Shown one piece after another: positions 23,623 to 57,303 of a stretch of DNA of 64,000 nucleotides. Source of the DNA: Prorocentrum cordatum (Eukaryota); the NCBI GenBank assembly GCA_963575745.1, contig CAUYUJ010000115.1, positions 248,001 through 312,000 of the forward strand, read 5' to 3'. The stretch's first letter is position 1. Every line of letters begins with the position of its first letter. The notes under the pieces are model-generated. The model ran no database searches. It was not told the DNA's origin and saw nothing but the letters and a program-made list of their open reading frames with translations. Made by a program: the position numbers and the translations under genes.

Positions 23623-23664
<42 letters not shown>

Positions 23665-30956: not shown

Positions 30957-32617
30957 TTTTTGATCGCAACCGCGTCGAGGGAAGTCGGGCGGCGTCAGAG
31001 GCGTTGGTGGGGATACTTTTGATTCGCGGCCCGCAAGGAGAAGTCCAGAGGGCGGCGTGACCGAGGCTGGGGCACAGCGACAGATAATTGGCGCGACATC
31101 GCGCCGAGTGCACCTGCAGATAATTAAAAAGAGACGGCCACGGTTCAGCCCGCGGGTGGAAGCGAACCGAACGCGAGACCAGCCGCTGAACATGTGTCAG
31201 CTGAAGCCCTGGTGCCACCACGCGGACCCCGAAAGCCGCTGAGCGTGCGCCAGCAGAAGGGGGCCAGGCGGAAACAGGTCGGACCCGCAGGTGGAGTACC
31301 GACTGTCAGGGGGCGCGAGGAGAGATGGGCAGCACAACCTAAGGGGAAGCGTGGCGAATCCACTCACTTGACTCCCAGCGCGCGGGCCAGCGTGTACGCG
31401 GGCCACACACAAGCCACCGAGGGGGGTTCGGGCCACTGAGCATACTTCTCACGGCCCGCACTCCCAGTCAATGCCTGGGAAGGGTTATTTCAGCCAACAC
31501 AGGGGAGGGCGCCCGCGGTGGCCGCAGGTACCATGGCGGCGTGGTGCCTCCGCTCCCAGGAGGCACAAACTATGGCCAGAGCCAACATCTAGCTCAGACG
31601 GCAGGGCGGCGCCTTTGGCCGTCGACCCTGTCCACCGCGGGCCGGCAAGCGGCCAAACCATGAGTCCAAAATGCCGGCCGCACAATCTACACGCCCATGT
31701 GTATGGGGGTCAGAAGTGGTAGTCGCTCCTGCGAGCGACGACGTGGAAGTCACTGCACTTTGCCGACTCCAAAGGATGGGGCACATGGAGGGGCCGCGGC
31801 CAGCGTCCGATGCGTCCCGGCCCGCACACGGCACGGGCAAAGTGACTGGGTGGAGCGTGCCGAGAAGTGGGGAGAAAACGCCTTAAGCGAGCCTGCTCGG
31901 TGCTCCACGGGCCGCCAATGCGGCCAAACCGACGACGGGGCTATTTCAGCCGGCCGCACGGGCTAAAGGCCCACGAGAACGTAGGAACTATCGCGGTGGT
32001 GGGGGGTGCACCTCAACCCCAGGAGGTAACATCAGTCTGCCCCCGCGGCCCACTGCCTCGGTGAAACACGTCCTGTCGCTGGCTGTGCCGACAGGTGTGG
32101 CCGCTTAGTGGGAACCCAGTGGCCATGGGGTCCACCGCAACTCTTCTTGCCGGTGCGCGGGGGGCCCAGCGGTCGTCGCTCCCCTGTGGCGACGAGGAAG
32201 GGGGGTTAGCAGCCGATAGCCGCAGGTCTTGAGTGTAGAAGCAGTGGCGACGAGGAAGGGGGGTAGCAGCCGATAGCCGCAGGACAACTGATAGCAAGTG
32301 GCGACGAGGGATGGGGAGATGCAGCCGATAGCCGCGGAACTGGAAAGTGAAGCGAGAGGCGGGGGAGAGCGGCCAGAGCCGCAGGACATCGTCCGAGGTG
32401 GGACCGTCCTAGGGGGAGGACAATCCCTCGGTATACGGGCGCGGCAAGTCTTCCGCGAAGGGGGTCACTCGTTGTCCCGGGAGCCCAACGCCGTGCGCCT
32501 TGGCGGCTTTTGGTAGTGTCGGCCCTGCCCTAGTCGGGGGGGGCCCTGCCAGGCCAGCTGCCGGGCTACCAGCGCGCGAGTTCCCTTCCTCGCTGCCGCT
32601 TGTCAGCGTATTGCTCG

Positions 32618-34237
32618 TCACTTTTCGGGGCGGTCCTTTTCTCCCTGTTTCCCCACGTAGCGCCCCTCCATGAACTCTCCTGGTGGCCCCACCCTTCCCA
32701 GCGCGGCCTTGGGCGCCATGGGGCTCCAGAGCTGGATGCTCCCGACCAGGTGGTCTCCCTGTAGTCGGTGCACGCTGGCGGGGCTTGCCGGCTCTGGGCT
32801 TGCTCCACGGGTGCTGCTGCAAAGCCCCGCTGTGTGTGCTAGAGGACTGGGTCTGCTCGCGGTGGCTTGCCCTGTCGGGTGGGACCGGAGGGGTGGGTAC
32901 TGTCCTGCTGCTGTCGGACCAAGGGTATGGGTGGCCCTCGCTGTCTTGCCCCTTGGGTGCGCTGGTCCTTGCGCTGCGCTGTAGTAGGCTACGATATTTC
33001 TCGGTGACCTTTTGCCATCCACCCGGAGATGGTGGTGCCTCACCAACTTATAGGCGCCGTAGCCCGCAGCTTCCCACGCCCGCAGGAATTCTTCGCACAG
33101 CTCCATTGTGTTCCTCTTGGGGTCCGAATGGATGCTGACCCAAGGCAGACCTTGCAGGCTGCCTGCCCTGCGGACCCAACCTGTCCACGCCCCGTTGAAT
33201 GCGCCTCCGAGTGTCTTCTGTAGTCTGGTGACTTTCTCTTGGGCTGGCTCGTCCCTCTGGATGTCGGCCTCGTCGATGGACCTCATGTACATGGGGGCCC
33301 TCCCAGGGGGTCGTCTTGATGTGGAGGTGGGAGTGGCTCTGCCTGTGGGCGAGGCCGTCTCTCTGGGCTGCTGTCCTGCCGGGGGCTGGGCGTCGGGCGG
33401 GTCTCGTGCGCTGGCGCTGCGAGCTCCGGGATAGACTCCTGACGGCAGTCTGGCTTGCTCCCTTTCCCTCTTAGTTTCCTGTTGTCACGGACTTCTTCCA
33501 TGTCCTCCCGGAAGCGGGCCGTCGCGCATGGCGCCCAAGTGGCCGCTTCCTCCTTGGCGGGGGGGACTGTCCACAGCACTGTCCGCTTGTGGGAGCCATC
33601 TCTGTCGCTGGGGCCGTTGGTTTCGGTTTCCTCGGCCTGCTGCGGGGGACTGTCGACCATGGAGACGGTCCTGTCTGGTGGATTGTCCTCATCCCAGTCT
33701 ACCTCGAATGGGTTGTCGCCATTACCGTGGGAGTCCCCTGCCAGGGGATGGTTCCTCCTTTATCTCCTTGGTCGCTTTTGTGGCTCCTGGGGGCTGCTGG
33801 CGGAGGTCATCGCCAGGGGCGCGGCCGTCCGAGGCTGGTGGGCGCTTGCGCCAGGCAGCGGCGGGGGAGCGGTCTCCGGCGTCGTTGCTGCTCCCGGCGT
33901 TACGCTCGCCAGCGAGGAACTCCAGCGTTCCCCCTGCGAGATCGCCCTTCCTCCGGGATAAGAAGCGGTGCAGCGTGTCCAACGGCTGCCGTCGGGGGTC
34001 TCGTCCTCTTTGGCAGTCGAGCGCGACGGAGAAAGAGCGCCAGGCCTCCTGGAACTTCTCATTCCTTCCAACCAGCTGCGCGATGGCATTGGCTGCGGCA
34101 GTTCTATGTCCGTCCCGCGGAATGTGCGGGGGGCGTCCATGCTTGGGGATCTGGCCCCCGTAGATGGAGCGGAGGAAGCTCAGCAGCTGGTTGCGCGGCC
34201 ATTCCGATTCATCGCTGTCTTCACCCACTTTGTCCAT
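32618..34237 (-). pseudogene. 3'-terminal orphan ORF fragments of the element
   Basis: Protein-like segments in ORFs 33722-34237 (EKFQEAWRSF...RDPRRQPLDTLHRFL) and 32618-33292 (LCEEFLRAWEAAGYGAYKLV). Confidence 0.45.
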
Positions 34238-37073
34238 CCCTTTCCCCGCCGAAAGTCGACCAACGAATGTAGACCTCGTGGTTCCATTCCAGCAGAAACT
34301 TCACAAGTTTGCGGACTGGGCTGTACGACTGCCCCCCTTCCAGGCGGAGGGTCGCGTGCGCGGGTAGCTGGGGGGCGCTGGGTGGAGGGGGCGCAGGCAG
34401 AGCGCACCCGAATGTAGCATTGTCATTGGGGACCCTCACCGACCGTGACCCAAGCCCGGGGGGATTGCCTGCGGAGGAGCCCTCGTTTGCGGATGTGCTG
34501 ACAGGAGACGGGCGTGCACTCATGTCGTAGATGTCCCAATCCTCAGCGCCTTCGCTAGTCGCCGTGGGGGCGGGGCTGGGGGGGTAGATCACGTTGGAGT
34601 ACGCGTCCAGCACATTGTTGAGTGCGATGGGTGCGATGTCCCAAATGTGCACCAAGCATCTCCTGCAGGCCCAGCTGGCATTCCATTGCCATTTGATCCA
34701 CAGCGATGGCATTGCTTCCAACGCTGGGAGGCCTGTGCGGTCACAGCACTCGGCGCCTTCTTCAGGGCGCCAAACGAAGCACCCCAGGGCGGGCGTGCCT
34801 GCCGGCCATTCGAGACCTGGGGCGTGCGCGGGGGGGGGGGGGGGGGGAAAGTCGCACTTGGCCGAACGGTGCGCCTCTGCACCGAACCTGCCGTCTGAAA
34901 GCCTTTGCGGTGGCAGCGTGGCGCCTGCGCAGGTGGGGCGGTAGTGGCGCGTCGTACGAAGTAGGAGCCCCTTGAGGGAGACCGCGGCGGTTGTGTCATT
35001 TGGTTCCTGCCAACCCAGTGGGAGCCCGTCCAGGGATGGGAGTGTTCTTGCCCTCTTCTGCTCCCGATTGTCCAGTAGCCTGCGCTTGTGCTCCCGCAGT
35101 AACCATTGCATGGACTTCTTGCTGAAGCGCTCCGCGGGGTCCGGCTCAGGGAGAGAAATGCTTTTCTTTTCCAATGAGGCGACCCAACAGCGTTCGCAGA
35201 GCCATCTGCAGTTTTTCCCCTTCGTGTGCGCCTGCAGGCGGTTCTGGGGGAGTAGCTCTCGGGTGTAGTCGTCTTCCCAGGTGCCTGCGGAGCCATGGGG
35301 CCCCCCGCTGTGGCATCCGTCGCAGCTGCACGCGGCCCCCTTCTGTAGCCTACTGAAGCGCCCATCGTGCAGCGTAGTACCTGGGGCGGGTGAGGCGGGG
35401 ATGTCTTCGTCGAGGCGGTGGTTGGAGATGGCTATCCCTCCGCCTATGTACTGGAAGTCCTCCATGGTACGTGGGCATCCCAGCCCAATCTCCGACCCTG
35501 CCAGCGCAGTGTGAAGCAGGCAGATGGAGCACCCTCCGTCGTGCAACCTGTTCACGTCAGCTGGCTGCACAATTTCCTCTAGTACGCGTAGGGGAGCTTC
35601 CGAAATGAAATCGTGCGACTCCATCCCTGCCCAAGTCTTTGGGCAGCCGTGCTTGTCAGCAATCTTGTGGTGGTGGGCGAAAGTTGCCAGGGCACTCGTG
35701 TGGCGTATGACTTTGGCGAGCTTGGCGCGGAGATTCTCGAGGTCCGCCAGTTGGTGCCCCGACGTCGTGGCGAACTGCGTGCGAAACTCTTTGTGCGCTT
35801 CCTGCCACGGGAGGCACAGGCCCATCATTGCTTCGAAAATGTCCCCGGTGACCTCGGGGTTCGGGAAGGGCCATAGAGTGGCCCGGGGCTCAAGTAACTG
35901 CAGCATCATGACCACCAGTAGTACTCTGAGTGCGTGGGGGGAGAGCGGCTGTCCGCCAGCACTGATAAGCGCGTCTGTGAGCTCCGTATCGATCCCCTCG
36001 TGCTTGAACAAGGCGTTCAGGTTCTCCATACCTGGATGCAACCTGTGCCGACGGCACTTGCAGGTAGTAAAGCTCCATGCCGCTGGAAACTGTTGGAGCG
36101 TGTCGCGGGGGGCGCAGTGACTATTCCTCTTGGGGACCCGGTTGGAGCCCACCATGTGGGGTAGTGGTGGGAGCGACTCGTACGCGACCCCAAACTGCTT
36201 GTCGTTCCATGGCGTGCCGAGCCCGAGGAACCAGACGATGGCCGCCCACGTGAGGTTGTATACTAGGTTGATCGCGTCGATCCCGACTTCCACGTCAAAG
36301 CAGTAACCCAGATGGCTCCATGCTTTCCTGTCTAGACTGCCTGGCTGCCTGGGTGTGGCCTCCATTTGCCATTGGTGGGGGTGTAGTCCGGAGATGGTGT
36401 ACGGCAGGATGCCCATGAGTGGGTCGTCGACCAGCGCCTGGATGCTGTCCGAGAGGGCGGCCCCAAGCTTCGCCCACGAGAACTGCTCATCCAGTGGTGC
36501 TGCGATGCGGTCCGTGAACGAGCTCTCCAATTTGGCCTTGGCCTTCCTGATGGCGTCGCCCAGGCCTTTTACACTGTCGTCCCCGTCATGCGTGGAAGCA
36601 GCTGGGATCCAAGACTCCAGGTCCTTGATGGGGTCGAATCCCTCGTCACAGTGTAGGGTGGTCCGGTTGCCCAGGTCGTCCTCGTGGGAGCGGATCCAGA
36701 GCCCGGCCATCCTCCCAGATTCCGAGAGCTCCCTGAGGTGCGATCCCGCGACCGTGCCGAACATTCTTCCATCCCCGATTATGATAACGTGTGACTTGGC
36801 ACGCGCGATAGCGACATTGACCCTATTGGGATTGTCCATGAAACCCCAGTCGTGGAAGTAGTTGGACCGCGTGGTCAGGTAGATCACGATGTCTGCCTCA
36901 CCGCCCTGGCTGGAGTCGATGGTGGAGATGCTGAGCCTGCCGCTGGCCAGGTGTTTCCCAGCTACCTGGCATATCCCTTGGAATTGTAGTCCGATGCCGT
37001 TGGATGGGGAGCTCCATTGCTCGAAGACCTGTTCGTGTCCTCGCTGGTCCCGGGGGTGGGGAGGGGGTCGCAT
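34221..37073 (-). CDS. SF1 helicase C-terminal domain (AAA_12-like), possible RNase III-like domain and Cys-rich modules
   Basis: STIDSSQGGEADIVI and GFMDNPNRVNVAIARAK..IIIGD are helicase motifs V/VI. GDIFEAMMGL lies at ~35818-35847. Cys clusters CSCDGCH...WLCERC and CCDR...WACRRC follow. Confidence 0.7.
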   Translation of the reverse strand: MRPPPHPRDQRGHEQVFEQWSSPSNGIGLQFQGICQVAGKHLASGRLSISTIDSSQGGEADIVIYLTTRSNYFHDWGFMDNPNRVNVAIARAKSHVIIIGDGRMFGTVAGSHLRELSESGRMAGLWIRSHEDDLGNRTTLHCDEGFDPIKDLESWIPAASTHDGDDSVKGLGDAIRKAKAKLESSFTDRIAAPLDEQFSWAKLGAALSDSIQALVDDPLMGILPYTISGLHPHQWQMEATPRQPGSLDRKAWSHLGYCFDVEVGIDAINLVYNLTWAAIVWFLGLGTPWNDKQFGVAYESLPPLPHMVGSNRVPKRNSHCAPRDTLQQFPAAWSFTTCKCRRHRLHPGMENLNALFKHEGIDTELTDALISAGGQPLSPHALRVLLVVMMLQLLEPRATLWPFPNPEVTGDIFEAMMGLCLPWQEAHKEFRTQFATTSGHQLADLENLRAKLAKVIRHTSALATFAHHHKIADKHGCPKTWAGMESHDFISEAPLRVLEEIVQPADVNRLHDGGCSICLLHTALAGSEIGLGCPRTMEDFQYIGGGIAISNHRLDEDIPASPAPGTTLHDGRFSRLQKGAACSCDGCHSGGPHGSAGTWEDDYTRELLPQNRLQAHTKGKNCRWLCERCWVASLEKKSISLPEPDPAERFSKKSMQWLLREHKRRLLDNREQKRARTLPSLDGLPLGWQEPNDTTAAVSLKGLLLRTTRHYRPTCAGATLPPQRLSDGRFGAEAHRSAKCDFPPPPPPAHAPGLEWPAGTPALGCFVWRPEEGAECCDRTGLPALEAMPSLWIKWQWNASWACRRCLVHIWDIAPIALNNVLDAYSNVIYPPSPAPTATSEGAEDWDIYDMSARPSPVSTSANEGSSAGNPPGLGSRSVRVPNDNATFGCALPAPPPPSAPQLPAHATLRLEGGQSYSPVRKLVKFLLEWNHEVYIRWSTFGGERDGQSG

Positions 37074-39205
37074 GGCCCTGTAAATTCGCCTTTGCCATCT
37101 CCTTTATCCTTGTTCCTAGCCTGCCCGAGGGGGCCGATGATGCTGCGACCTGACTGGGGCCAGCACTTTCCGAGCACCGCGCACTGAAGTTGGTAGCCTA
37201 CCACGACCAGGACTGTGGTCCCTTTTTCCATGGCAGGCATGAGGGCCCTCACCACGTCCACCGTCTGCGCGGCCTCTGGGATCTTTGCGTAGCCAGAATG
37301 AAGATTGGAGGTGACCTCGACTGAGGGGTTGTCGATCAGGAGAAACCGGTGCCTTTCTTCAGAAGGCTGCGGTGGGGGTTGAAGGTCCCGTAGTAACGTC
37401 TCCATGTCGCCTGTGGAGGTATTGGCCGATTCAGCCAACGCCCAGAGCCCCCCTTCGCCCCAGGGTCGTATCTGCTGCCACGGTAGTCCTTCCACGATAG
37501 GTCTCTGCGCCAGTGGATTGGTGATCCCTGTCCGAATAGCCTCGTTGTAGAAGGCTACGTTCGGCCACGAAAGGAGAAGAGGATGCATACGGTAGCATAG
37601 GTTCAGTTGTACCACTGCAGGGTTATCCCCGCCTAGTGCATTGTACAGCTTGTCGAACATGGAGAGACACAGCCCCCTATCCGCCGCCTTCCTGGAGAGA
37701 ACCGGGGGGGGTAGCTGCCTGGGGTCACGAACCAGTAGCAGGTGTCTTCCCGACCGTATGACATTGACGAGGGATGCCGCCATGAGTTCGTGGGCCTGTC
37801 CCGCCTCGTCGACGATGAACAGAGCCGTTGGTACAAGCTTGAGCGACTCTGCCGCCTCGTGGGTAGCGATAACCAGCTTGGCGTCGCTCAGTAGCTGAGA
37901 GCGGAAGGACAGGAGCTCCTTGGTCGGCCCATTCTGGTTGGGAGGGTGGTCGCGGGTCCTCTGAAAGTGCCCCACTGGGGTCAGTGACGCAATCTCCGGC
38001 GCCACTCTGGCGTCCTTCGCGAGCCTGACACACCTGTTGGGAAAGCCGGTCTCACCAGCCAGCCTGTTCTCCTTGCGCGCAATCCCGAGCCCGATAGCGG
38101 GCTGATCGGCTGCCGCATTCGATCCAGCTGTGAGGGCCACCGACTGCCTCGCAGGAAGTGAACTAGCCCATGCGTCCATAGTGGCCACCGTGAATAAAGT
38201 CTTGCCAGTCCCTGGGGGTCCATGTACAATCGTCACGTGGTGTAGGATGGTGGCGGTCAGTGCTTTGGCCGCGTTCTCGTTTAGTCGGTGCCGTCTGGCG
38301 GCGTCGTTGAGGCTGTCAATGGGAGGAAGGTTGCGCACTCGCTGGAGGACCTGCCCGATAGATCCATCAACCTCATCGTCCGTGAACGGCGCGACTGCTT
38401 GCGCCTTCCTGTGACGCTGCAGCCTCGTATCTTCCAGAGCCGCTACGCCCGGTAGGCACCGCCCTCTGCTCTCAAGGGTGGCCCTCGCCCTTGCCAGGAG
38501 GGAAATGCTGCATGCCCTAGTATTCTCCACTTCGTTGGCCCTTAGCCTGTCTCTCCGCTGGGTGGTCCGCAGATTGAGGTAGAACGTTATCACATCCAGT
38601 GGAGAGCCCACCCATTCGTCCGATGCCTGCTGCAGCGTGTAGATCTCGCTGATGGCCTGGTAGATTCTCCAGCACTGCAGCTTCGACGGCGCTCTGTCCA
38701 GTCGGAACAGGACTTCTCCCTTGCTGCCTGCGTTTGATTCCTTGCCGAGAGCCAGAAGCTCCTCTGCCTGCTTGGAGTCGCACCATGCCAGGGCCTGGTT
38801 GGTGGGATACCTTGCGCCTTCCCTAAGCTCCATTACGACGCACTCGTTGCTGGGGATGTGGCCACCAGATTCCGGGGGCCAAATGAGCCTGAGGGAGGCG
38901 ACCTGGTCTTCTGTCGGATTGGTAAGGCTGAGGAGCAGCGCCCGTGACTGCGAGCCCTGTCCCCCGTCCATCCCCTTGAGCGACAGCCGGAATTCACTTG
39001 GCCATTGCAGGTGTAGGAGTGTCTTCCCGTCCTGGGGGGGGAACGCCTGGCGAAGCTTGTATTTATCGAGCGCGCGGCAAACCGACACCTCGTGCGTGGG
39101 GCTACCGCCACCTCCATGGCACAGCTCTGCTTGCGTGTCAGATCGGTTCTGGCTTTTACTGAGCCGTCCCATGTCGTCTCCGTGGGGGCCTTGGTCTCCG
39201 TCCAT
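36962..39205 (-). CDS. Upf1/DNA2/NAM7-like superfamily 1 helicase, N-terminal RecA domain (AAA_11-like)
   Basis: VHGPPGTGKT (Walker A, ~38198-38227), AGSNAAAD (Ia), IVDEAGQ (II), VRDPRQLPP (III; usual GD changed to RD), SMFDKL, LNLCYRMHP. Continues by frameshift into 34221-37073. Confidence 0.9.
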   Translation of the reverse strand: MDGDQGPHGDDMGRLSKSQNRSDTQAELCHGGGGSPTHEVSVCRALDKYKLRQAFPPQDGKTLLHLQWPSEFRLSLKGMDGGQGSQSRALLLSLTNPTEDQVASLRLIWPPESGGHIPSNECVVMELREGARYPTNQALAWCDSKQAEELLALGKESNAGSKGEVLFRLDRAPSKLQCWRIYQAISEIYTLQQASDEWVGSPLDVITFYLNLRTTQRRDRLRANEVENTRACSISLLARARATLESRGRCLPGVAALEDTRLQRHRKAQAVAPFTDDEVDGSIGQVLQRVRNLPPIDSLNDAARRHRLNENAAKALTATILHHVTIVHGPPGTGKTLFTVATMDAWASSLPARQSVALTAGSNAAADQPAIGLGIARKENRLAGETGFPNRCVRLAKDARVAPEIASLTPVGHFQRTRDHPPNQNGPTKELLSFRSQLLSDAKLVIATHEAAESLKLVPTALFIVDEAGQAHELMAASLVNVIRSGRHLLLVRDPRQLPPPVLSRKAADRGLCLSMFDKLYNALGGDNPAVVQLNLCYRMHPLLLSWPNVAFYNEAIRTGITNPLAQRPIVEGLPWQQIRPWGEGGLWALAESANTSTGDMETLLRDLQPPPQPSEERHRFLLIDNPSVEVTSNLHSGYAKIPEAAQTVDVVRALMPAMEKGTTVLVVVGYQLQCAVLGKCWPQSGRSIIGPLGQARNKDKGDGKGEFTGPCDPLPTPGTSEDTNRSSSNGAPHPTASDYNSKGYAR

Positions 39206-39934
39206 GCCAGTCTGGTCAGAATGATCCCCCTCTGTCGTAGGTCCTGCTCCCAGTGTTTTGGCAGATCAACTAACTCCTTCTGAGATTTTCCCCAGGGGGG
39301 CATGCAGACGGAACTGGGCTCCAGGGCGTTCCGCTGGCACGGAGAACATTTGCGCGATGGCCTTTGCTGCGGTATCAGCTGGGGGGTCTGGGGGCGTCAG
39401 CGAGGGGAGCGGGCGGCGGCTGCTGGCCCAGCCGAAGTCCTCCCCCCTTAGCGACCCGCCCCGCTCGGTGGGGTCTTGAGACGATGCCCTGCTGGATCCG
39501 ACCAGCCTGTCGCACAGGTCGGGGGGAGGCGGCCCCTCTGCGCTGTTGCGCGGGGGAGGCGGGCCGCTCCCTCCCAAAGTCCTTATGTTGAGCCATGGGT
39601 TGATACTCCCGCCACGTCGGTATAGGTCTGCCGGCCGCAGGCTGGCAGACGGGATCGTGTCGGTGGGGGTGATAAAACTGAAATCGTCGCCGCGAAATGG
39701 AAAGTCGACCGGTACGTGGTCCCAGTCATCCGGGAACGTCCAGCCCGGTAGGTGCACACGGCCCTCTTTCACGTCTGGACAATGGGAGTTCCCACCCTGG
39801 CCACTCGTGTCTCTCGAACTCAAGATTGGTGATGCAGTCTCTGATCCCCCCTCGGGTCCGGGCCCAGAGGTTGCCTGCCTGAGTATAGCACCTGGGGTCA
39901 GGCCATCCGTGCTCCTTCTGCTTGGCGGCCTCCA

Positions 39935-40015
39935 GGTAATGTTCGATACTCATGAGATGCGCCTTGCCGTCACAGTGCTTCTGACAGACATCGCACCACC
40001 AACACCACTCTTGGT
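39935..40015 (-). other. U1/matrin-type C2H2 zinc finger
   Basis: WWCDVCQKHCDGKAHLMSIEH in ORF 39726-40337. Confidence 0.6.
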
Positions 40016-40459
40016 GGAAGTGCGCCCATCGCATCCATGGGCATTCACGGGCCCGAAAGGGCTTGGTCGCACCTTCTGCACTGGGGCCACTCTTGCAGGG
40101 CTCGAACGGAGACTGCCATCTGACAAGGGGCTCATTGTTGTTTCTCCTCACCATCCCGTGGCGGCGCGATGGGGGGAAGCGCAGCCGATAGCTGCGGGTG
40201 CTGGAAGAATGCACAGGGGGGAGATGCTTGAGCCGACACGGCGCGGGCTCAGATGCTGCGGCGATCGGACGGACGGCGATCCGAGCGAGGGGGGCCAGGG
40301 GGCGCGGCAGGAGGGGGATGCGCGACAGAGTGGGCAACCTCAGCGGCCACTATGGGGTCGCACAGGCTGGCACCGCGGGGGGGGACGCAAGCAAAGTGGG
40401 CGGGAATGGGAGGGACGGACCCACTCCACTGAGTGCGGGAAGTGACGGCCGTAACGCCT

Positions 40460-40910
40460 TCCCTACGTAGGGCGTCTGCCCAATGCACCCCAATGGTGGC
40501 CAGACTGTCAGCCGCCTTGTTAAGTCTGCGCCTGACGGCTTGCCATGTGAGTACCCAGCCTGCCCCTTCGACCTGTCCCAAGGCCTCCTCCATCTGCTGA
40601 GCCAGGTGTAGCCTTCGGTATCTGGCTGCGCCAGCACCGCACCTTACCGCAGCTAGGTTGTCGCCGACAATCCGCGCGGTGCGGGCAGGACTGCTAATGT
40701 GGGGAAGCAGTGCCAGCCCGGCACGACCGCCTGCAACCTCGGCAATTTGGGCGTTGTTGCAGTCTGGGAGAGCGACTATGGCAATGGCGAGCACACAGGG
40801 TGCCCCGGTGCTGGGGTTGCGGTGCCAGAGTATGGCCCCGCCTCCGGAGACCTTCTCGCCTTCTCGCCTTCCCCGATGGATATTGCCCCCCCGTCAAAGG
40901 TGACCTCGTA
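40460..40910 (-). pseudogene. RNase H domain
   Basis: YEVTFDGG / (frameshift) GGGAILW...NNAQIAEV...IVGDN...WQAVRRRLNKAADSLA; all four acidic catalytic positions are recognisable. Confidence 0.85.
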
Positions 40911-41365
40911 AGGTCATTGGGTGGAGTGAGAATCGGGAAAAGGGGAGTCGCGAACGGTTATCTCGTCGCCTGGCTCAAGTCTGATGTTGGCCCTGAGAAT
41001 AGTGGTGCGCAACCGACATTCGCGGCAGAAGGACGACGACCAGCACGCGGTTGGAGAGTTGTCAGTCCTTGGGCATGGGAACCACCCTCTGCCGGGAGGC
41101 ATCCACGCAGCGCGGCTATGTGTGGACTGCGACACCACCAGTCTGTCATCTGGGTTGCAGTGTCTGCTGACAACCGGGAGCCTCCGGATTTCGCCTCCAG
41201 CACTGTCTGCGCGCCTTTGTGCATGGGGACCGGCAGCCCCGCAAATTGCCCCGGCCGGCGGGGGACTTCGGGTTGCACGTGTGGCAACGGTCACGCCGCA
41301 CGGTCCGCACGGCCGCTTCGTCATGTCTGCCAACCCTGGAGGGGTCGCTCTCAGCCTACTCGTCC

Positions 41366-42867
41366 TCATCGCTCCCTTCGTGGGGGTCCATGTCTGGGGT
41401 GCCCAGCCCGCGCAGGATGAGAGTGGCCGCGTCGCTTGCTAGCTTCCAGGGGGGTGGCAGTAAGGTTGACGCAGTAGCGGAAGGAGATCTGGTGTAACAC
41501 TTTGGCAAGCAGCGGTTGGTGCACGCCCTCGCCTGTGATAGCTTGGGCGAAGGTTGGCGGATCGCCGGGCCCACGGATGGTGTCCCAGACGAGGGCGGCC
41601 GCCGGGCACCAGTGCCAGCCGTGTTCGGTCGTGGCTTCTCCCAGCCCACAGAGTGGACAACGTCCGTGCGGCCCTCCCCTGATCGGCGGCCTCAAGAGCC
41701 CCCCCGAGCTAGCGCAGGCGCAAGCTTGTGCTCTCAGAGAGGGGGGGGGGGGGGAGTATCAGGGGGGAGCGTTTGCCAGAGGGCGAGGGCGCGGGGTCCG
41801 TTGCCGATGCATCTACTACACCAGGCAGCCCCCTCGTCATTCGGGCCGGCTGTGATCCACACTCTGCTGGCCGGCGCCCCGCAGGGACATCTGTGGGGCA
41901 CTCTTTCGTCATTCCCCCTGCGCCTTGCCGGGCCTGGCAGGCCGTTACTGAGCACCCTTAGCACGTGGTACGCACAGGTGAAGGTGACGCAGTACCGTAG
42001 CAGCTGCCACTCCTCACCCACCGAGGGCTGCCACCTTCTCCCTTGGCTGGTTTTTTGAAGCCAGGCGGTGAAGTGATGACTGTTCATCTGCGCCCAGGCC
42101 GCCACATAGGTGATTATGCCGTATTGCCTGCCCTCTAGTAGGTGGAGTCGTTGCCTCAAGGCGAGCAGGGCCTGGGCGGCCTTGCGCCCTGTGATCATTT
42201 TGGGCCGCGGGGGATGTGCCTCTGGGGCCTGGGCTGCTCGGCCACTCCAGTTCAGCAGCTTGTTCCATCTGGTGCTGGCCCGCTTCTTGAGTGCGCAGGG
42301 CCCCCAGAAGTCCCCGAGTGCGAACGCTCCTGCGGCAACAGCGCGGGCTCTTGCTGCAGGGCACCTGGGCGCGCCCTGCACTTGGAAGCGCATGCCAAGT
42401 CCGGTCAGGACTATGTCGGGGACCCAGGAGGCCCCGGCCAGCCCGAGGGCAGTTCTCAACTGGGCGCACAGTTCACGCTCCTGTGTCACGTCCGGGGGGG
42501 CGTAGCGTGCCGCGTAGGGGGTCAGAGAGACCAGGTACGCGTTCCACGCAGCGGCCGTCCTGGAAGGGGACACCTTGGCCAGGTGCAGCGCAAGGGATCT
42601 CTCCCTCATATCCTGGGGAGGGGGCGGTTCCACGTGCCCTTGCGCAAGACCTCCTCTTGCTCTCCTGTGAGTCCTCCGTTCAGCGGAGGTTCGTCGCCTT
42701 CTTCTGTTCTGGATACTACTACTGCCCCCAGGTACGGCCATTGCTCCCTCACCGCCGATCCTCCAAATGGGGTGTGCTCCATCAGTGTGCGCCAACATCC
42801 TTGGTCTCCCGCTGGTACGAGCGCTGTCTTGGACGCGCAGCTGCAGGCGCGTTGGTAGCATGTGCAC
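41366..42867 (-). pseudogene. Post-RT region with a CCHC zinc knuckle
   Basis: CPCG...WCSRC and CPLCGLGEATTEHGWHWC (Cx2Cx8Hx4C), typical of LINE ORF2 C-termini; frameshift at the G14 run 41741-41754. Confidence 0.7.
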
Positions 42868-43985
42868 CGGATGGGACCACGTTCCCCCATGTAGCTGTTA
42901 ATCAGAGCCTGGGTCAAGAGCGCAGGGAGTCCCGAGATGAGCACGCTGTCTGCATCCTGCTCAAAGTGTACGGGGACCTCCTCCAGCCCCGCGCGGATGT
43001 CGGGGGAGTCATCGGTGCGCGTCCCCCTGCATCTGTGCGCTTCGACCAGGAGCCCAGCGGCCTTGGCGGCCCGGGGGAGTGCGATTGCTGCGCGTAGAGC
43101 CTGTCTTGTTGTGCTTACAAGCGCGGCGAGGTCGTCTACGTACGTGGGGTCGTCTTCTCTTGTGATGGATGCAATGGCGCCTATGAGAGGGTCGTATCCC
43201 AAGCTCCACAGGAGGGGGGAGGCAGTGCCCCCCATGCCGACGGATCTGAGTAGGCGGCGCCCTGGCCCTTTGCACTTGCCCTTGCACGTCTTTACCTTCC
43301 GCTCGATAACCAATGCTTTTAGGGCGTTGAGTAGCCACGAGGGGAGTGCCCACCTCTGTAGAAGGGCGTCAACCCATTGGAGCGAAATCCTTTCGAACGC
43401 TTCGTTCTGATCGCAGAAGATGACGGCAGTGCAGGGGGCCTCGCCCAGACCTGAGGCGGCGCGCTCGATGTAGTCCTCTACCACCGCGTGATGCTGACCG
43501 AGTAGGGCGGCCCAACCAGGACCCGGTGCGCTTGGTGGTTTGGGGGTAGCGCTCCAGTGTTGAGTAACCTTGGTGGTGTTGGGACCACACTGTCCCCCTC
43601 TCTTGGCCGCTCGATTGGGACTTAGGAGTGGTTCGACGACTGGGCCAATAAGGTCGGCCAGGGATGATCCGTAGAGACGCCGTATGCAGGTGGGGAGTTG
43701 GAGCGGCCTCATGTCGTTGGGCCCTTCAGCGCCTGGTTTCTTCCCAATCAAGACAAGGAGGTCGACTGAGGGCCCCAGTACTTCGTCGATGAGGTTAGGG
43801 TTGAGGTCCGCTGCATACCATGCCTGGGCGAGGAGGCAGGCGACGAACCTTGCGCCTGGGCGAAAGGCTTCGCACGGGATTCCGTCGACCCCTGGCGCGC
43901 CCCCGCTGGGGGTGAGGACGGTGGCAGCCAGCTGTGCCCAACAGGGGGCAGGCCGACTAGATATGTCAGTGCCAGGGTGTCCCAA
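42606..43985 (-). CDS. Non-LTR reverse transcriptase
   Basis: APGVDGIP (domain 0), LVLIGKK, MRPLQLPTCIRRL, IFCDQNEAFERI, RSVGMGGTASPLLW, YVDD, and YLG in the thumb region. Confidence 0.9.
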   Translation of the reverse strand: MGHPGTDISSRPAPCWAQLAATVLTPSGGAPGVDGIPCEAFRPGARFVACLLAQAWYAADLNPNLIDEVLGPSVDLLVLIGKKPGAEGPNDMRPLQLPTCIRRLYGSSLADLIGPVVEPLLSPNRAAKRGGQCGPNTTKVTQHWSATPKPPSAPGPGWAALLGQHHAVVEDYIERAASGLGEAPCTAVIFCDQNEAFERISLQWVDALLQRWALPSWLLNALKALVIERKVKTCKGKCKGPGRRLLRSVGMGGTASPLLWSLGYDPLIGAIASITREDDPTYVDDLAALVSTTRQALRAAIALPRAAKAAGLLVEAHRCRGTRTDDSPDIRAGLEEVPVHFEQDADSVLISGLPALLTQALINSYMGERGPIRCTCYQRACSCASKTALVPAGDQGCWRTLMEHTPFGGSAVREQWPYLGAVVVSRTEEGDEPPLNGGLTGEQEEVLRKGTWNRPLPRI

Positions 43986-44769
43986 GAAGTACTGATCAAG
44001 GAGCCGGCCAGCCGAACTGGGAAGAGGGGGGGCGGAATGCCAAATCGAGCTGCGGCTGTCCCAAAGTACCTTACCAACCTGGTTGGGCCTGTCGTGCCAG
44101 TTACCGTCGTGGTCCCTTACCCCTAGAATGGCGTGGGTATTTTAATATATTTCCCGCCCAGTTCTGTAGTGGGCCGCGAGGGGGGAGCGTTATGCTCCTG
44201 GGCCTCGTCGGACGGGGGATAGGTGCATCGCCCTTCGCTGCGTGACCTCCGCGTCCCAAGTCTTGAGCCAGAGACCTGCCTGATCTGGGGTTAGGTCGTG
44301 TCCGTCCCATCCAAACTCGTGCAGCCACGCTGCCAGGGCCCCCACTGGGCGTGTGACTTGTTGTCTCTGGCTGGCTGCCGCAAGCAGCATCCCCGTTGAG
44401 GCTCGCGCTCTGTGCGACTTCCACTTTTTCCACCAGTCCTGTAGGGCAGAGGCGAGGGCGTGCCTCCCGAATCTCATGAGGGTGGGAAGGACTGGGGGGA
44501 GGAAAGTGCGGACTTCCCGGTGCTGGAGCGGGGTCACTGGGCAAGCGAGAGGCGTCGCCATCGTCGTTGTCCGGGTGATGGTCGGGGAACCCTCCTGGGC
44601 GGGCTGGCCTGATCCAGTCTGCGGGCTGGATTAGGCCACAGAGGTTGACGGTTGGCACGCCGAAGAGGATCTCCAGGTCTGCGTAGATCCTGCGGAGCTC
44701 CACGTGCGCGGCAATTGGGAGTTTCCTCAAATCTGCAGCCCTCATGGTGTCGTCCCTTCTCGCTCTCCC

Positions 44770-45470
44770 TGCGCCCTGGGGGTCCAGCGAAATGAAGGCA
44801 TGATCTGATAGAGTGAGCCGCCACAGCTTCCAGGGGTCGCAGGCGTGGATGTGGTTGATAGGGCAAGCACAGATGTCAATTTGGGATTCACTTTCCTTGT
44901 CAATCCTGGTTGGGCCGTGCATGTGGATGGCGATGGAGCCGGAGCTGGTTAGGATGTCCCTCAGGAGGGCCGCAGCCTCTACCTCTCCGTCCCTCGGGTG
45001 TTGAAGCTGCAGGTTGACGCCCCCTCCCCAGTAGGTGTCGAGTGGCCCCCATCGTTCCGCAGCCGATGCGATCTCCGCCAGGGTCTCTTCCTTCCTGGTG
45101 TGTGTGTGGGGGGGGGGGGGTAGATGGACACAAGGCGAATTCTCCTTTCGCCCTGCTGCACTATCGCTGCTACTGCACAACCCGGCACCATGTCTTGCTG
45201 GCCCGGGAGGGGAGTTCCGTGCGGGAGGAAAATCCCAACCCCACCAGCCAGTCCTCCTGTAGGCCCCAGGAATCCCGGGGAGGCAACAACCGTCCGCGCC
45301 GGGAACATGGTCTTCCACACCTCGGCCTCATGCTCGGACCAATGTGTCTCCTGAATGAGGGCGATTCTATGGTTCAAAGTGACCTGCGTTAGAAGGGCGT
45401 GCTTGACCTGGTTCTTGTTGGCGGTGCAGCTTCTGAGGTACCTAACATTCCAGCTAGAGAACCTGGGGAG
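44770..45470 (-). pseudogene. APE-type (EEP) endonuclease, frameshifted
   Basis: SWNVRYL, IALIQETHW, GGVGIF, LVSIYPP / (frameshift at the G13 run 45108-45120) GGGVN (GDFN position), PT, SQIDIC, SDH. Confidence 0.85.
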
Positions 45471-45885
45471 GGAAGTATGGGGGGTGGTGTTCACGGCGCG
45501 CATCGCGTCGTTAAGGGACAGGGTGCCACACAAGTCATCCCATGTGGGGTGCGTCGAGGGTGTATGGCGCAGCACCGCCCACAGGCTCCTTGGAGCCCGA
45601 ATGCTGCGGTGGCATCTTTCTTCCAGTGTCTCGTTGAGTGCGCGACGAGCCTGCTCCCAGGCGCGCGTGCGCATTCCCGCAACTCGCAGGTGCCGGGGAG
45701 GGGACCCCAACGCTCTGTGGAGCGTGTTGGGGTCCCTGGTAGAGTCTAGGGGCGCTGCATCTCTGGGAGAAGGGCTTCCTCACGTCTCATTTGCTCTGCG
45801 ATGTCGTCTGGGAATGGGTGGTTCTGAAGCTGGGCCCACGGGCGTTGTCTCCCTGCGTAGGTACGGGCTGCCACCCATGCTCTTG

Positions 45886-47214
45886 CTATTGCTCGCCCGT
45901 AGGAGCTGGGGCCCGGGCCATGGCACCGTGCTCCCCCGCCCTCCATGCTTGCATCGCAGTTACCACCCTGCGCTGGAGGCACCTCGGGTCGAAGTGTACG
46001 CCGACAGCGTCGTATAGCGCCCTGCCATTTATTCCGAGCCCACGGTAGTAACCCGCTAGGCCGGTGGCCCGGGCTCTCTCCTCTGCGTTAGGGGGTCTGA
46101 GCCCATGGGCCCTTCCTTCCTTGACCGGCCATCTACCCCAGGCCTTGACTTTTTCCTCTGCAGCAGGGCTCTCCCTTTCCTTCCCCGACATCACCAGTCC
46201 GAGGCCTTCCGTGCATCCTTTGAACCGTTGTTCTGCCCCGCAATCTGCAAGTATCTGCGCGGCTCCTAGTCTCAGCTCCGTCGGATCTCGTAGGAACCAT
46301 CTGTGGGTGCTGTCCTCGTTGTACAGGAGGCAGAGGAGATGAGTCTGGTAGCAACTGGGCGGTATGGCGTCTGGGTCGTCTTGGGCCACTCTGGACGGTG
46401 TCCATGCGGGTATTCTTCCGTCGGGCCTGTAAGCCCATCTGGGTTCCCAAGGGCTGAGGAGCCGGTGGTGCGTTATTGCTTTAGAGGGAGGGGGGAAGTT
46501 CGCCATCCACAGTCTCTCCCTTGGGCTGGCCACATGGTCTCCTGCGTTCATCTTGACAGCCCATTCCGGGCTGAGGTCGCCCATGGCGGCTCTCATGGCA
46601 TCTCGATGTGTCAGAGGCATGGAGGCCACAATTTCTACCACCACGAGTATGTTGACGTCTGGTCTCCTTTTGTTAGCGAGGTACCACGCTGTAGGGATGG
46701 CGAAGAAGTGGTGAGACTGTGCGCCTGCCAGTCCGTCCCTAACGGCGCACCTGCCTGCGGCCGACAGGTTGTTACATGGCGGTCCTGCCACTATTAGGAG
46801 GGTGCTGCCTTGTTCCAGCGAGTCTAAATGTATTTCCCATGGGGATATGTTGTCCTGGGGGTCCTTCCGTCTGAACAGGTCCCAGACGTCCTCTGCTATC
46901 TGCCTGTGCTGTGGGCCTCCGTCCTGCGGGTCTGGCGCACTGGCCCATCTGCGCGCAACCGCCTGAGCCGCCGTCCTGTTGTGCTCAACGAACACGGAAG
47001 TTCGGAGCCTGCTGACTGCGTCTAGCTTGTGGGTGAAGTCTCCTATCGCGAGCCTGGCGATACCCCACCCGTCGAACAGCGATACCAGATGTAACGGCCC
47101 CCCCCCCGTCCGAGGTGGACTGGGCCGCGGGTCCGACCCCTTCTGTTCCTTGTTCCTGCTGCGTGAAATCCCGTTCAGTCGGTTCCTGGACCTGCAGTCT
47201 GCCCGCGATGTCAT
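45886..47214 (-). CDS. C5 cytosine DNA methyltransferase, DNMT3-like
   Basis: Motif I LVSLFDGWG; motif IV AGPPCNNLS; motif VI VEIVASM (ENV position); motif VIII SPRERLWMANFP; motifs IX/X EERARATGL...LYDAVGVHF. Confidence 0.9.
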   Translation of the reverse strand: MTSRADCRSRNRLNGISRSRNKEQKGSDPRPSPPRTGGGPLHLVSLFDGWGIARLAIGDFTHKLDAVSRLRTSVFVEHNRTAAQAVARRWASAPDPQDGGPQHRQIAEDVWDLFRRKDPQDNISPWEIHLDSLEQGSTLLIVAGPPCNNLSAAGRCAVRDGLAGAQSHHFFAIPTAWYLANKRRPDVNILVVVEIVASMPLTHRDAMRAAMGDLSPEWAVKMNAGDHVASPRERLWMANFPPPSKAITHHRLLSPWEPRWAYRPDGRIPAWTPSRVAQDDPDAIPPSCYQTHLLCLLYNEDSTHRWFLRDPTELRLGAAQILADCGAEQRFKGCTEGLGLVMSGKERESPAAEEKVKAWGRWPVKEGRAHGLRPPNAEERARATGLAGYYRGLGINGRALYDAVGVHFDPRCLQRRVVTAMQAWRAGEHGAMARAPAPTGEQ

Positions 47215-47299
47215 TGGCCGCCTGGTTGGGCTCTAGGCGGACCGTGCCTTGTTCGTGCAACGACTGCACGGTCTCCCGAATGGTGTCGTTGTCTAGTCC

Positions 47300-50200: not shown

Positions 50201-52056
50201 GGATGTCCGGGGGGGGGATTCTTACCATGCTGTCTCCTTGTCCTCTGGTCGTTCCCCCAGGGAGTGGCCATGCTCTGGTGCGCAAGCTGGCTCTGGCAGA
50301 GCCGATCGCTGCCGAGAACATCCGTAACCTGGTGTGGCTTGGAATCCAAGGGTCGGGGCGCATTGGCCGCGTTCTGGGGGGGCCAATCGGCCTTCCTTGC
50401 CGACCGAACGCCGTGACCTCCAGCATCTGCGGTTGCACCGCTCTCCTTGGGGCCTGTCGCACTGTTTGCTCTGCTACGGCCGCGATGTGCTCCGCTTGTG
50501 CCCTAGGTGATCCTGCGTCCCCCCTGCTTTGCTCTCCGGTGGGGGGGGGCTGGAAGTATCCTAACCACCTGCGAACCTACTGCGATGCAGCTTGTTCCGC
50601 AAAAGGCCGCATATATCTTGGTCGCCGCCCCAAGTCGGACTCTGACCTGCGTCATGTGTTGATAGTCCCCCGTGCCCGGAAACCAAGCGAAGACTGCCGT
50701 GACTTGCTCGACCGCCCCTGCCCCGACTGTAGCCTCCACGGCCCTTGTGATATCTTGCCTGCTGGTCTGCCCCAGGTCGGCGAGGTTCCATCTGAGGCGA
50801 TGGCCTTCCTCAGGGTCCGAAAGTCTGATGAATGAGGGGCCCCCGTCCCATTCTCCTTCCAGGAGGATCCTTCGAGGGCAGCGCGCGGGAGAGCCGCTTG
50901 CTGATCCAAAGACTAAGGGGAGCGTCTCCCTGAGATATCTCAGCATGGGGGTCGCTATTCTTTCAGGAGTCTTTAGTAGGAGGACCCCACCCCCCTTGAG
51001 GCCCGCTCTGTACCCTAGGGCTGCTGCTGCCTCAGCCGCGGTTGCCAGCGCAATGCAGGTGGCAGCTCTGGACACAGGGATGCGCACGGAGTCCGATGCT
51101 TCCCTGGATCTCCAGGCGCTTCCGCTGGTGCCCCCGGCTAAGGCAGTCTGCGTCGCTACCTGCAGGGCCTCCATGTGGGGGTCGCTCTGTGCCAAGCCCC
51201 GTGCCGCTCCATTGTGAGTGCGCCGAATCACGTGGTTATATAGCGGCTCCAGCCCCTCCCTCAGGAGGGTCTCTACCCTAGGCAGGGAGATTTTAGCGGT
51301 AGCCCACTCAACGTATACGGCCGCTCGTCCCAGGTCATCAGTGATTCGCCTCCATCTTAGAATCTGGGCCACCGCAGCGTCGTTTTTCTGCTCAGGCGTC
51401 AGTATGTGTAGCGCATCGCTGGTGCCCAGGTCCTCACCACCCCAATGCACCACCACTGAGGGCGGGCATGCTGTTCATTGGGGGTGGCTAGCGATGTCAA
51501 ACTGCGCCGCCACCAGCTGCAACAGGGGGGGGCTGCTGCGCCCAGCTATGATCGGGTTTCCTACGGGGAGCAGGTGTGTGATCATGTTGGTGGCTCTGTA
51601 TCCCCATTGCGCACTGGCGATGGCGATGAGCTCGGTTGGGTCCGGGCCCCCCGGGGTAGGGACTCCATGTCCCATCAGTGCCACGACCTTGCAGGAGCTC
51701 ATTCCTGAAGCTGCCGCAGCCAGTGTGGCCTGCAGCTGGGACGCGCTGGCGTCCGCCACGACGATGGTTGGCGCGCCTTGCCCCTCGTCCTGGACGCCCC
51801 TACTGCAGGCGAGTTCTTTGATCTGCTCGTAGGCGCTCGGGCTGAACAATGCTATGGTGGTGCCCGCATCGTCCGCATGTCTGTCTCCAACCAACGGGGT
51901 TCTTGCAATAACTAGTTCAGCTCTTAGCTCCCTGAGTGCTGCCATCAGGAGGGGCGCTGGGAAGGTCCCCGGCCCTCTTCCACTGGAATATCCTGGGGGA
52001 TGCCTGGCAAGGATGGCAGCCCATCTGCCCTGTGTAATGCTTGGGGTTGCGTTCAT
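47300..52056 (-). pseudogene. ORF1-like / unknown region of the element (fragmented ORFs)
   Basis: ORFs 51475-52056 and 50503-51456 share a frame and are separated by one TGA. Further protein-like fragments lie at 49701-50462, 48676-49725 and 48064-48606. No family recognised. Confidence 0.5.
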
Positions 52057-56800: not shown

Positions 56801-57190
56801 TCTGTCTACTGGGCAAGCTCCCAGAGCTGCCTCCCGAGCCTGCTCCCCATCCCTATTTCCGACCGTTGTGGGCCGAGGTGTGTCCTCTGCTTGCGCCCAC
56901 TGTGGCTCGTCCGCTCCACTGCGAGGAGAGGCGGGAGGTGGAGGGGGGAATGGAATGCGCTCAGGGTTCCTCTCAGGGACATGTCCCTCCACCAGCAACT
57001 GTAAGTTCTCTTCCCCCTCGCGCCTCGGGGGTGGTCTTGGATCTGTGCTCAGTGCTGGCTCGTCCTCGCGTATCGGCGCAGGTTGCACACTCTGCGGGGG
57101 AGATGTCTCCATTGGAACCAGTACACAGTCTCCCGTGCCGCGCACTGCTGGATCATCATCTCCAAGTATACCCTGGTGCGGATCAGCCAT
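53395..57190 (-). pseudogene. 5' ORF fragments of the element: Pro-rich repeats and Cys/His finger-like motifs
   Basis: DPAAIG/VAIG repeats (55627-56739), ICEHLVHEHC (~55020-55050), CGNCGCWC...CIVCH (~54710-54775). Confidence 0.45.
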
Positions 57191-57303
57191 CGCCTGCGTC
57201 GCCTACTGGGGGGAAAGCGGCCCTGGGCTGGAGGGTAAACGGCGTCCTGGCGCCCCCTTGAGCGGTGGGAGGTTGCCCCGAGGGGAGCAGGCCCACCAGA
57301 CGG

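Follow-up and report, generated by a model that had tools for sequence, protein, structure and literature searches.

An Upf1-like helicase gene carried within a giant site-specific LINE of Prorocentrum cordatum, with a candidate RNase III-like domain

Introduction

Can a retroelement carry an RNA helicase gene of its own, and could such a gene serve the element that carries it? The question is raised by contig CAUYUJ010000115.1 of Prorocentrum cordatum (assembly GCA_963575745.1), of which positions 248,001 to 312,000 of the forward strand, 64,000 nucleotides in all, were analyzed and are termed the window here. On the minus strand of the window, next to a reverse transcriptase (RT) gene, lies a 7.5-kb open reading frame (ORF), ORF3, which encodes an Upf1-like helicase. 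A reading of the letters alone, here called the original prediction, had placed at 34221..40337 a module consisting of a double-stranded RNA (dsRNA)-type zinc finger, an Upf1-like helicase and possibly an RNase III-like domain, and had proposed that this module is cargo of a retroelement. ORF3 is found inside one insertion of a long interspersed nuclear element (LINE). It is probably the third gene of a giant, site-specific LINE of the kind that carries a DNA methyltransferase (DNMT), where it would act on the element's own long RNA.

A site-specific insertion of 26 kb

The limits of the insertion are marked by a short direct repeat, and ORF3 is located within them, between ORF2 and the 3ʹ untranslated region (UTR) of the element. 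The features that define this arrangement are as follows.

31017..57336, minus strand: whole element, a non-long-terminal-repeat (LINE-type) insertion of 26,320 bp running from 57336 (5ʹ end) to 31017 (3ʹ end) and flanked immediately on either side by a perfect direct repeat of 12 bp
31005..31016, no strand assigned: target-site duplication at the element 3ʹ end, TGGTGGGGATAC (plus strand), an exact repeat
57337..57348, no strand assigned: target-site duplication at the element 5ʹ end, after which comes the right half of the target repeat (ACGCGAAGCGT...)
30957..31004, minus strand: second copy of the element 3ʹ end, 5ʹ-truncated to about 48 nt, at the same target site; placed by alignment and bounded in turn by TGGTGGGGGATA
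40249..45785, minus strand: ORF2, encoding an apurinic/apyrimidinic (AP) endonuclease, RT and RNase H; RVT_1 match at E 7.1e-10; seven frame changes in the window copy
32618..40154, minus strand: ORF3, about 2510 codons, delimited by tblastn of the homologous proteins P0117 (2541 aa) and P0237 (2945 aa) against the window, by translations and by alignment
31017..32617, minus strand: 3ʹ UTR of 1.6 kb, covered by contigs of a public DNA run, with three copies of a hairpin motif at 32209-32335

The 12-bp sequence TGGTGGGGATAC occurs exactly twice in the window, on the plus strand at 31005-31016 and at 57337-57348. Read on the minus strand, the element ends in ...GCGAATCAAAA, closing in AAAA. Flanking long terminal repeats or terminal inverted repeats were considered and rejected; self-BLAST gives 13 pairs of at least 120 nt, none of which flanks the element.

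Two sets of contigs, one from a public DNA run (X1) and one from a marine metagenome (X2), show the target in other states. Many leave the match to the window at 30950-30953 with the loose-end consensus ATACGCGAAGCGTCAAGAATT and go on with ATACGCGAAGCGT... (94+31+12 in X1, 10+3 in X2). This consensus agrees with the window just after 57346 at all 13 of its first 13 letters and at 17 of 21 overall; because the continuation is the sequence beyond the 5ʹ duplication, these contigs represent the empty site. Two X1 contigs and one X2 contig join the left flank directly to the element 3ʹ end (30952 to 31017), without the 48-nt copy, and are, judging by this joint, separate insertions that brought this 3ʹ end to the same target. 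Taken together, the duplication, the empty-site contigs and the other insertions identify the element as a site-specific LINE of 26,320 bp, inserted in the manner of target-primed reverse transcription. Its target is a short, high-copy host repeat, with a summed X1 contig depth of about 2500 at 30.5-31.15 kb.

The claim that the helicase module is carried inside a retroelement is thereby supported, since ORF3 lies in one duplication-delimited unit between ORF2 and the element 3ʹ end. The module had also been described as directly downstream of RNase H. It does stand next to ORF2, but it is a separate ORF rather than the tail of an RT polyprotein: ORF2 stops with the TGA at 40251-40249, and the ATG of ORF3 follows 95 nt further on. 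The ORF3 frame extends, free of stops, 100 nt upstream of the ORF2 stop, so that an ORF2-ORF3 frameshift fusion is conceivable, as are re-initiation and a separate message.

ORF3 is one intronless gene with a conserved family

ORF3 is a single gene of about 7.5 kb, running on the minus strand from the ATG at 40154 to the stop at 32618, with a product of about 2500 aa. In the window it appears as three minus-strand ORFs, whose translations hold the C2H2-like finger, helicase motifs I-IV, and motifs V-VI with a long tail, respectively. These ORFs are fragments of one gene because the intact protein P0117 aligns along the whole length. By tblastn, P0117 runs from window position 40148 to 33017 in frames -3, -1, -3, -1 and -1; its first Met aligns with the ATG at 40154, it reaches the same C-terminus, and the next frame after the aligned part terminates at the stop at 32618. 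The module is present where it had been predicted, but the gene starts at 40154 and ends at 32618, 1.6 kb beyond the lower coordinate of 34221..40337. From its N-terminus, the protein consists of a C2H2-like finger, an Upf1-like helicase of superfamily 1 (SF1), a 350-aa all-alpha domain, a Cys-rich region and a low-complexity tail.

39939..39998, minus strand: C2H2-type finger pattern C-x2-C-x8-H-x5-H, WCDVCQKHCDGKAHLMSIEH, kept in the window, P0117 and P0237
36771..38281, minus strand: Upf1-like SF1 helicase core with motifs I-VI, from Pfam AAA_11/AAA_12/AAA_30/AAA_19, a PDB search, motif coordinates and alignment
36950..37162, minus strand: Gly/Lys-rich insertion loop between helicase motifs IV and V, in frame in P0117 and P0237, containing one frame change in the window
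35487..36536, minus strand: all-alpha domain, candidate RNase III-like fold, with DRKxWSHxG[YF]xxD around 36294-36332 and GDxxEAxxG at 35820-35846
34554..35486, minus strand: Cys-rich region (CxxC, CxGC, WxCxxCW, CDxxP, CxxC) common to P0117, P0237 and the window

The window copy of ORF3 has at least three frame changes, near 39730-39780, 37040-37100 and 34221-34570, and an in-frame stop at 39266-39268. As read from its letters, it is therefore dead, that is, a pseudogene, or it has been harmed by indel errors of the assembly. The gene is intronless. A candidate intron at 37149-36977 (173 nt, GT..AG ends, phase kept) was rejected, since P0117 and P0237 read this stretch in frame as a Gly/Lys-rich loop; the disturbance at 37.0-37.15 kb is accordingly a frame change in the window and not an intron. 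Rather than the single-copy, intron-containing helicase that, if unlinked to RT, would have removed the cargo claim, ORF3 is multi-copy and without introns.

In a search among longer proteins, P0117 matches with an E value of 8.5e-110, and 48% of residues are identical across 95% of the helicase region; a search among proteins of similar length yields no more than remote helicases, with identities up to about 30%. When the 849 residues that follow the helicase were searched against 1.84 billion representative proteins, they matched 130 at E≤0.001, 69 at ≤1e-10 and 10 at ≤1e-30. Almost all of these matches are fragmentary and short; the long members are P0237, whose domain order is the same, and P0238 (1251 aa). 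In those of the long members that were scanned, Pfam finds the helicase only, or nothing. P0117 and P0237 are just 33% identical, yet both retain the finger, the full set of helicase motifs, the helical domain and the Cys-rich motifs. Open frames of 7.6-8.8 kb that are kept at 33% identity imply, on the strength of these comparisons, that the family has been under long purifying selection.

This conservation bears on the idea of ORF3 as a passenger: a host gene acquired by the LINE lineage in a single transduction, without a role for the element and now decaying. The broken state of the window copy would fit such a history, as would the published DNMT-LINEs, which the main text of PMC5890265 describes with two ORFs only. 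However, uninterrupted ORFs of 2541 and 2945 aa at 33% identity, with the same domain order and motifs, require long purifying selection, and the representative search returns a large family at the two thresholds of E≤0.001 and ≤1e-10. Furthermore, related contigs restore the frame at several window breaks. A passenger origin is therefore very unlikely.

Linkage of ORF3 to the element

A second possibility is that ORF3 is an independent multi-copy gene or element, for example of a retroposed host helicase family, that merely adjoins this LINE copy or is nested in it. The junction itself speaks against this: the 95 nt between the ORF2 stop and the ORF3 ATG hold no target-site copy, no A-rich tail and no LINE 3ʹ UTR. 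Moreover, other insertions are joined to the target repeat by a family 3ʹ end that is located downstream, and not upstream, of ORF3.

Related contigs point in the same direction. At 80% identity or more, 5226 X1 contigs match 30.5-50 kb and cover all 30 of 30 bins (467 at 99% and above, 978 at 95-99%, 1711 at 90-95% and 2070 under 90%). They cover the ORF2 and ORF3 parts with no visible step at 40.2 kb, and no joint from 40.2 to 32.3 kb is among the joints listed (15 of 22). Indels in related contigs fall exactly at the window breaks 42608, 41438, 40853 and 34232, and these breaks are therefore private to the window copy. Base composition is likewise similar on both sides of the junction. The G+C content at third codon positions is 0.72 in ORF3, 0.70 in ORF2 and 0.67 in the DNMT ORF, and from 32 to 56 kb the observed/expected (o/e) ratio of CpG is uniform at about 0.75 with constant strand skew; the window as a whole has 62% G+C.

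Several findings weigh against ORF3 as a part of the LINE, and some of them are what an independent gene would lead one to expect. ORF3 stands as an ORF of its own, a helicase fusion is absent from all 10 ORF2 homologues, and no long ORF3 homologue contains an RT. Two scans of metagenome contigs and one of viral contigs returned no second full locus with ORF2 followed by ORF3, and no contig bridging 40154-40251 is shown. Because fusions are absent among the homologues, the ORF2-ORF3 linkage rests on one insertion and on short contigs, whose depth is not a copy number. In the window, ORF2 has seven frame changes in 5.5 kb, whereas ORF3 has at least three and a stop in 7.5 kb. The hairpin motif, which flanks ORF3, could be the trace of a boundary left by recombination or insertion. 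Given the junction, the position of the family 3ʹ end and the shared composition, an independent gene nonetheless appears unlikely, and ORF3 is best taken as a probable third gene of the LINE.

The helicase is Upf1-like

All six motifs of an Upf1/DNA2-family SF1 helicase are present where the original prediction had placed them on the minus strand: GPPGTGKT (Walker A, motif I) at 38198-38221 and DEAGQ (DExx, motif II) at 37796-37810, both kept in P0117 and P0237; QLPP at 37706-37717; YRMHP at 37580-37594; TIDSSQGGE at 36897-36923; and RVNVAIARAK at 36795-36824. Motif III of the window copy has RD in place of GD. Conservation of the helicase motifs and of GDxxEAxxG across family members, which had been proposed as a check, is borne out.

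Pfam assigns AAA_11 (1.7e-19, 71.1 bits) and AAA_12 (6.9e-9, 36 bits) to the frame at 36962-39265, and AAA_12 (8.5e-16, 58.5 bits) to the frame at 34221-37103. All of these scores exceed the curated gathering cut-off, which is 27 bits for both families, and P0117 reaches 90.5 and 99.6 bits for AAA_11 and AAA_12. The nearest solved chains in a PDB search are Upf1/NAM7 (1.3e-17), IGHMBP2 (2.4e-13), Sen1 (2.7e-12) and DNA2 (5.7e-6). By these matches, the ORF3 helicase is Upf1-like. A specific affinity to MOV10/Armitage/SDE3, helicases that had been invoked for their role in transposon silencing, is not supported, as the MOV10 matches range from E 1e-5 to 4e-4 versus 1e-17 for Upf1.

With the Upf1-like SF1B helicases (Upf1/NAM7, IGHMBP2, Sen1, DNA2 and MOV10), ORF3 has the six motifs in common, and by match score Upf1 and IGHMBP2 are closest. 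What sets ORF3 apart from these is an N-terminal region of its own, a loop rich in Gly and Lys that separates motifs IV and V, and an extension of 1400 aa at the C-terminus; its identity to any named protein of similar length is at most about 30%.

Zinc finger

The spacing C-x2-C-x7-8-H-x5-H is common to the three long members (window, P0117 and P0237), and a CPWxRW sequence precedes the finger at 40026-40043. The N-termini of the window protein and of P0117 match no Pfam zinc-finger family at E≤10. The finger therefore stands as a conserved pattern, but the U1/matrin-like, dsRNA-type label first given to it reflects likeness of spacing only, to judge by these searches.

A candidate RNase III-like domain

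Behind the helicase, in the same ORF as the helicase C-terminus as had been noted, lies the sequence GDIFEAMMGL (35817-35846), with WSHLGY at 36303-36320 on the same minus strand. In RNase III, the first signature (ExLExLGD) holds the catalytic residues E41 and D45, and the second, [AG]DxxEAxxG, holds D114 and E117 (E. coli numbering). The second signature, GDxxEAxxG, is well kept in the ORF3 family: G in 30 of 32 members, D in 23 of 31, E in 28 of 32 and A in 28 of 32. Given a family alignment of 64 rows, AlphaFold2 predicts an all-alpha fold for residues 1-350 of the domain, with a predicted local distance difference test (pLDDT) score of 82.7 and a predicted template modelling score of 0.86. 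When such models are compared with known structures by VIA-align, RNase III domains rank at the top with low Z; the best match is to single-domain RNase III of the bacterial and Entamoeba type. The top three include 9dei_B, probably a chain of the trypanosome editing complex.

The sequence methods, together with Foldseek, count against this assignment. The first signature is not canonical in the family, which has DRKxWSHxG[YF]xxD instead. Pfam Ribonuclease_3 matches none of 75 family members at E≤10, and P0117 does not match it at E≤1; the family profile, run against PDB sequences, gives low-complexity matches only and no RNase III. At E≤0.001, Foldseek finds nothing in PDB for either model, nor in BFVD for the domain model. 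The probability given by hhalign is 0.08% against E. coli RNase III and 0.4% against an alignment of seven RNase III sequences taken from E. coli and phage-collection records. The ESM Atlas yields no usable match, and the C-terminal 849 aa of ORF3 match only an antibody chain among PDB sequences (E 1.2).

The best local pairing of hhalign, which is not significant, sets SHLG[YF]xxDxxxGxDAxNxVY on ERLEFLGD...LY. This pairing places D81 (conserved in 20 of 22) on D45, G77 on E41, and GDxxEA on D114/E117. If it holds, the domain would keep equivalents of E. coli D45, D114 and E117, and not of E41.

The RNase III part of the original prediction, called weak there, finds weak support in the second signature and the VIA-align ranking, but none in the sequence searches, Foldseek or the first signature. 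A very divergent RNase III-like fold is given a little better than even chances, and the likelihood that the domain is catalytically active is well below that of the fold. The alternative, to which somewhat less than an even chance is given, is that ORF3 belongs to the LINE as argued above and that the 350-aa domain is a lineage-specific helical one, for example for protein or RNA binding, with no RNase III kin, its GDxxEAxxG being convergent or due to chance. The same sequence and Foldseek negatives speak for it; the family-wide conservation of GDxxEAxxG and the structural ranking speak against it.

The Cys-rich region is poorly modelled (pLDDT under 50) and has no Pfam or PDB match, and so no known family. 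No PAZ domain or dsRNA-binding domain is detected in P0117 by Pfam at E≤1.

Proposed function of ORF3

The original prediction had suggested that the element may have captured an RNA-silencing-type module, to counter host defence or to remodel its RNA. As a third gene of the LINE, ORF3 would be translated apart from ORF2, by re-initiation, by frameshift or from its own mRNA. Its protein would act on the very long RNA of the element itself, where the 5ʹ to 3ʹ helicase may strip structure, proteins or annealed antisense RNA off the 26-kb template. The RNase III-like domain would bind, and possibly cut, dsRNA. The outcome would be either RNA trimming at hairpins and at the 3ʹ end, or removal of dsRNA that would trigger host silencing.

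A bolder version makes ORF3 a transposon-borne functional analogue of Dicer/Drosha, in which an SF1 helicase of the Upf1 type feeds RNA to an active, highly divergent single RNase III domain. Element RNA might then be cut at the hairpins with UAUCG loops that flank ORF3, which would free the ORF3 message and set the template ends; alternatively, sense-antisense dsRNA might be shredded, so that the host would make no small RNAs against the 26-kb LINE. This version is distinctly unlikely.

Hairpin motif

The hairpin motif invoked above is represented near ORF3 by the following feature.

40181..40195, minus strand: hairpin motif GCAGCTATCGGCTGC, 26 nt upstream of the ORF3 ATG

The motif is 15 nt long and can form a 5-bp stem with a UAUCG loop. 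A search gives 7 matches, all on the minus strand, versus 0.22 expected, and an eighth copy is at 56421. On the element sense strand, the eight copies of GYRGCTATCGGCYRC have their first bases at 56709, 56472, 56421, 56358, 40195, 32335, 32280 and 32223. Four of them thus lie at 56.7-56.3 kb (the last about 35 nt before ATG), one before ORF3 and three just after it. Pairing is kept in 40 of 40 cells (C-G, U-A, U-G; G-U, G-C, A-U), and one pair is changed on both sides. Covariation does not establish the structure, as 78 of 500 shuffles reach an equal score. At gathering scores, Rfam finds no match in the whole window.

Other modules of the element

Upstream of ORF3, the element has the parts expected of a LINE and a long 5ʹ region. 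ORF2 aligns with P0367 (1811 aa, residues 6-1805) at 50-60% identity from window position 45767 to 40333 (tblastn), and its intact homologues P0372 and P0374 contain Exo_endo_phos, RVT_1 and a C-terminal RNase H-like RVT_3. One X1 contig (depth 50) and one X2 contig join 43838 directly to 45908. The 2069 nt skipped comprise the ORF1-ORF2 spacer and the endonuclease part of ORF2, and the joint may represent an endonuclease-less deletion variant of the family.

45886..47232, minus strand: DNMT-like ORF upstream of ORF2, with FDGWG (motif I) and GPPCNNLS (motif IV)

Matches of the DNMT-like ORF are weak (plant DRM methyltransferases in PDB, E 0.046; Pfam DNA_methylase, E 0.35). The 5ʹ part of the element at 47300-57190, also on the minus strand, consists of about 10 kb of broken coding sequence with an ATG at about 57190. 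Its only recognizable domain is a RING finger (zf-RING_2, 3.1e-8, at about 52390-52550); Pfam, run at E≤0.1 on 42 further minus-strand ORFs of the element, returns only the RING finger and two chance-level matches. RING fingers also occur in some unrelated helicases from the searches (P0012, P0130 and P0146). At the other end, among ORFs of at least 70 aa, the 3ʹ UTR contains none that has a homologue.

Surroundings of the element

Just outside the 5ʹ end of the element are a 142-nt tandem repeat (copies 93% identical) and then an ATG/GAT-rich microsatellite, at 57750-58150 and 58200-58400. Elsewhere in the window, 12287-14500 is a long tandem array (period 9 nt, sometimes 12 nt) in which GC skew is strong and G+C is lower. 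A repeated unit of about 130 nt, present four times in one orientation with 83-94% identity (2175-2308, 25616-25749, 27755-27886 and 61474-61603), may be a small interspersed element. Another repeat, of about 1.1-1.3 kb, is present twice at 75-90% identity (16893-18186 and 23142-24384) and is overlapped by long open frames on both strands.

On the plus strand, CCGCAGCCATTTTGGCTCAGG at 18224-18244 is a 21-mer with 2 mismatches from the dinoflagellate spliced-leader motif; 0.01 matches are expected by chance. It may be the relict leader of a retroposed gene, and the similarity suggests a fit with a dinoflagellate host.

Comparison with known systems

The closest published systems are the DNMT-carrying LINEs of Symbiodinium, of which the present element is probably a variant with ORF3 added. 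According to the main text of de Mendoza et al. (2018, Nat Commun 9:1341; PMC5890265), SymbioLINE-Dnmt has two ORFs, a DNMT ORF followed by an ORF for an endonuclease/exonuclease/phosphatase domain, RT and RNase H, and also has target-site duplications and conserved UTRs, without a poly(A) tail. The present element resembles this description in its DNMT-like ORF ahead of an ORF2 with Exo_endo_phos, RVT_1 and RNase H, in its target-site duplications, in lacking poly(A) and in its reduced CpG (about 0.75 o/e). It differs in the extra 7.5-kb ORF3, in a 5ʹ coding part of about 10 kb that includes a RING finger, in its total of 26.3 kb and in its site-specific insertion; its DNMT match, moreover, is weak. 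The word "helicase" occurs 0 times in the main text and three text supplements of PMC5890265.

LINEs with an accessory SF1 RNA helicase have been described in insects. TRAS/R1 and Jockey elements acquired viral SF1 helicase domains (Lazareva 2015, Morozov 2017, as summarized in passages of PMC6338049), and a link to RNA silencing or antiviral defence has been proposed in the same passages. In contrast to ORF3, the insect elements have helicases of the alphavirus-like Viral_helicase1 type, as fusions with element proteins, whereas the present one is Upf1-like (AAA_11/AAA_12), has its own ORF and is attached to a candidate RNase III-like domain. In the full-text literature on retrotransposons or LINEs with helicase or RNase III domains, no carrier of an Upf1-type helicase or an RNase III-like domain is among the matches listed, so far as these texts were available.

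ORF3 resembles Dicer in having a helicase and an RNase III-type domain, if the latter is accepted, on one chain, and resembles bacterial and Entamoeba (class 1) RNase III in having one nuclease-like domain with GDxxEAxxG. Dicer has a helicase of superfamily 2 (RIG-I-like), a PAZ domain and two RNase III domains. ORF3, with an SF1 helicase, one candidate domain and no PAZ or dsRNA-binding domain detected, differs from Dicer; unlike class 1 RNase III, it has a non-canonical first signature and no significant sequence similarity. Endonucleases of the trypanosome editosome and their partners combine a U1-like zinc finger with an RNase III domain and serve mitochondrial RNA editing. ORF3 is similar to them in its H-x5-H C2H2 finger alongside an RNase III-type domain, but about 1200 residues separate its finger from the domain, the sequences are not similar, and the two belong to different settings.

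Implications for the element and its host

LINEs are normally 4-8 kb long and have one or two ORFs. A 26-kb LINE with four modules strains current views of how much target-primed reverse transcription can manage, and a helicase encoded by the element itself is an obvious candidate for what allows such a length. If the nuclease-like domain is real and active, ORF3 would be a transposon counter-measure or a self-processing device that uses the chemistry of host RNA silencing. The locus would then offer a testable case in a lineage with huge, repeat-rich genomes.

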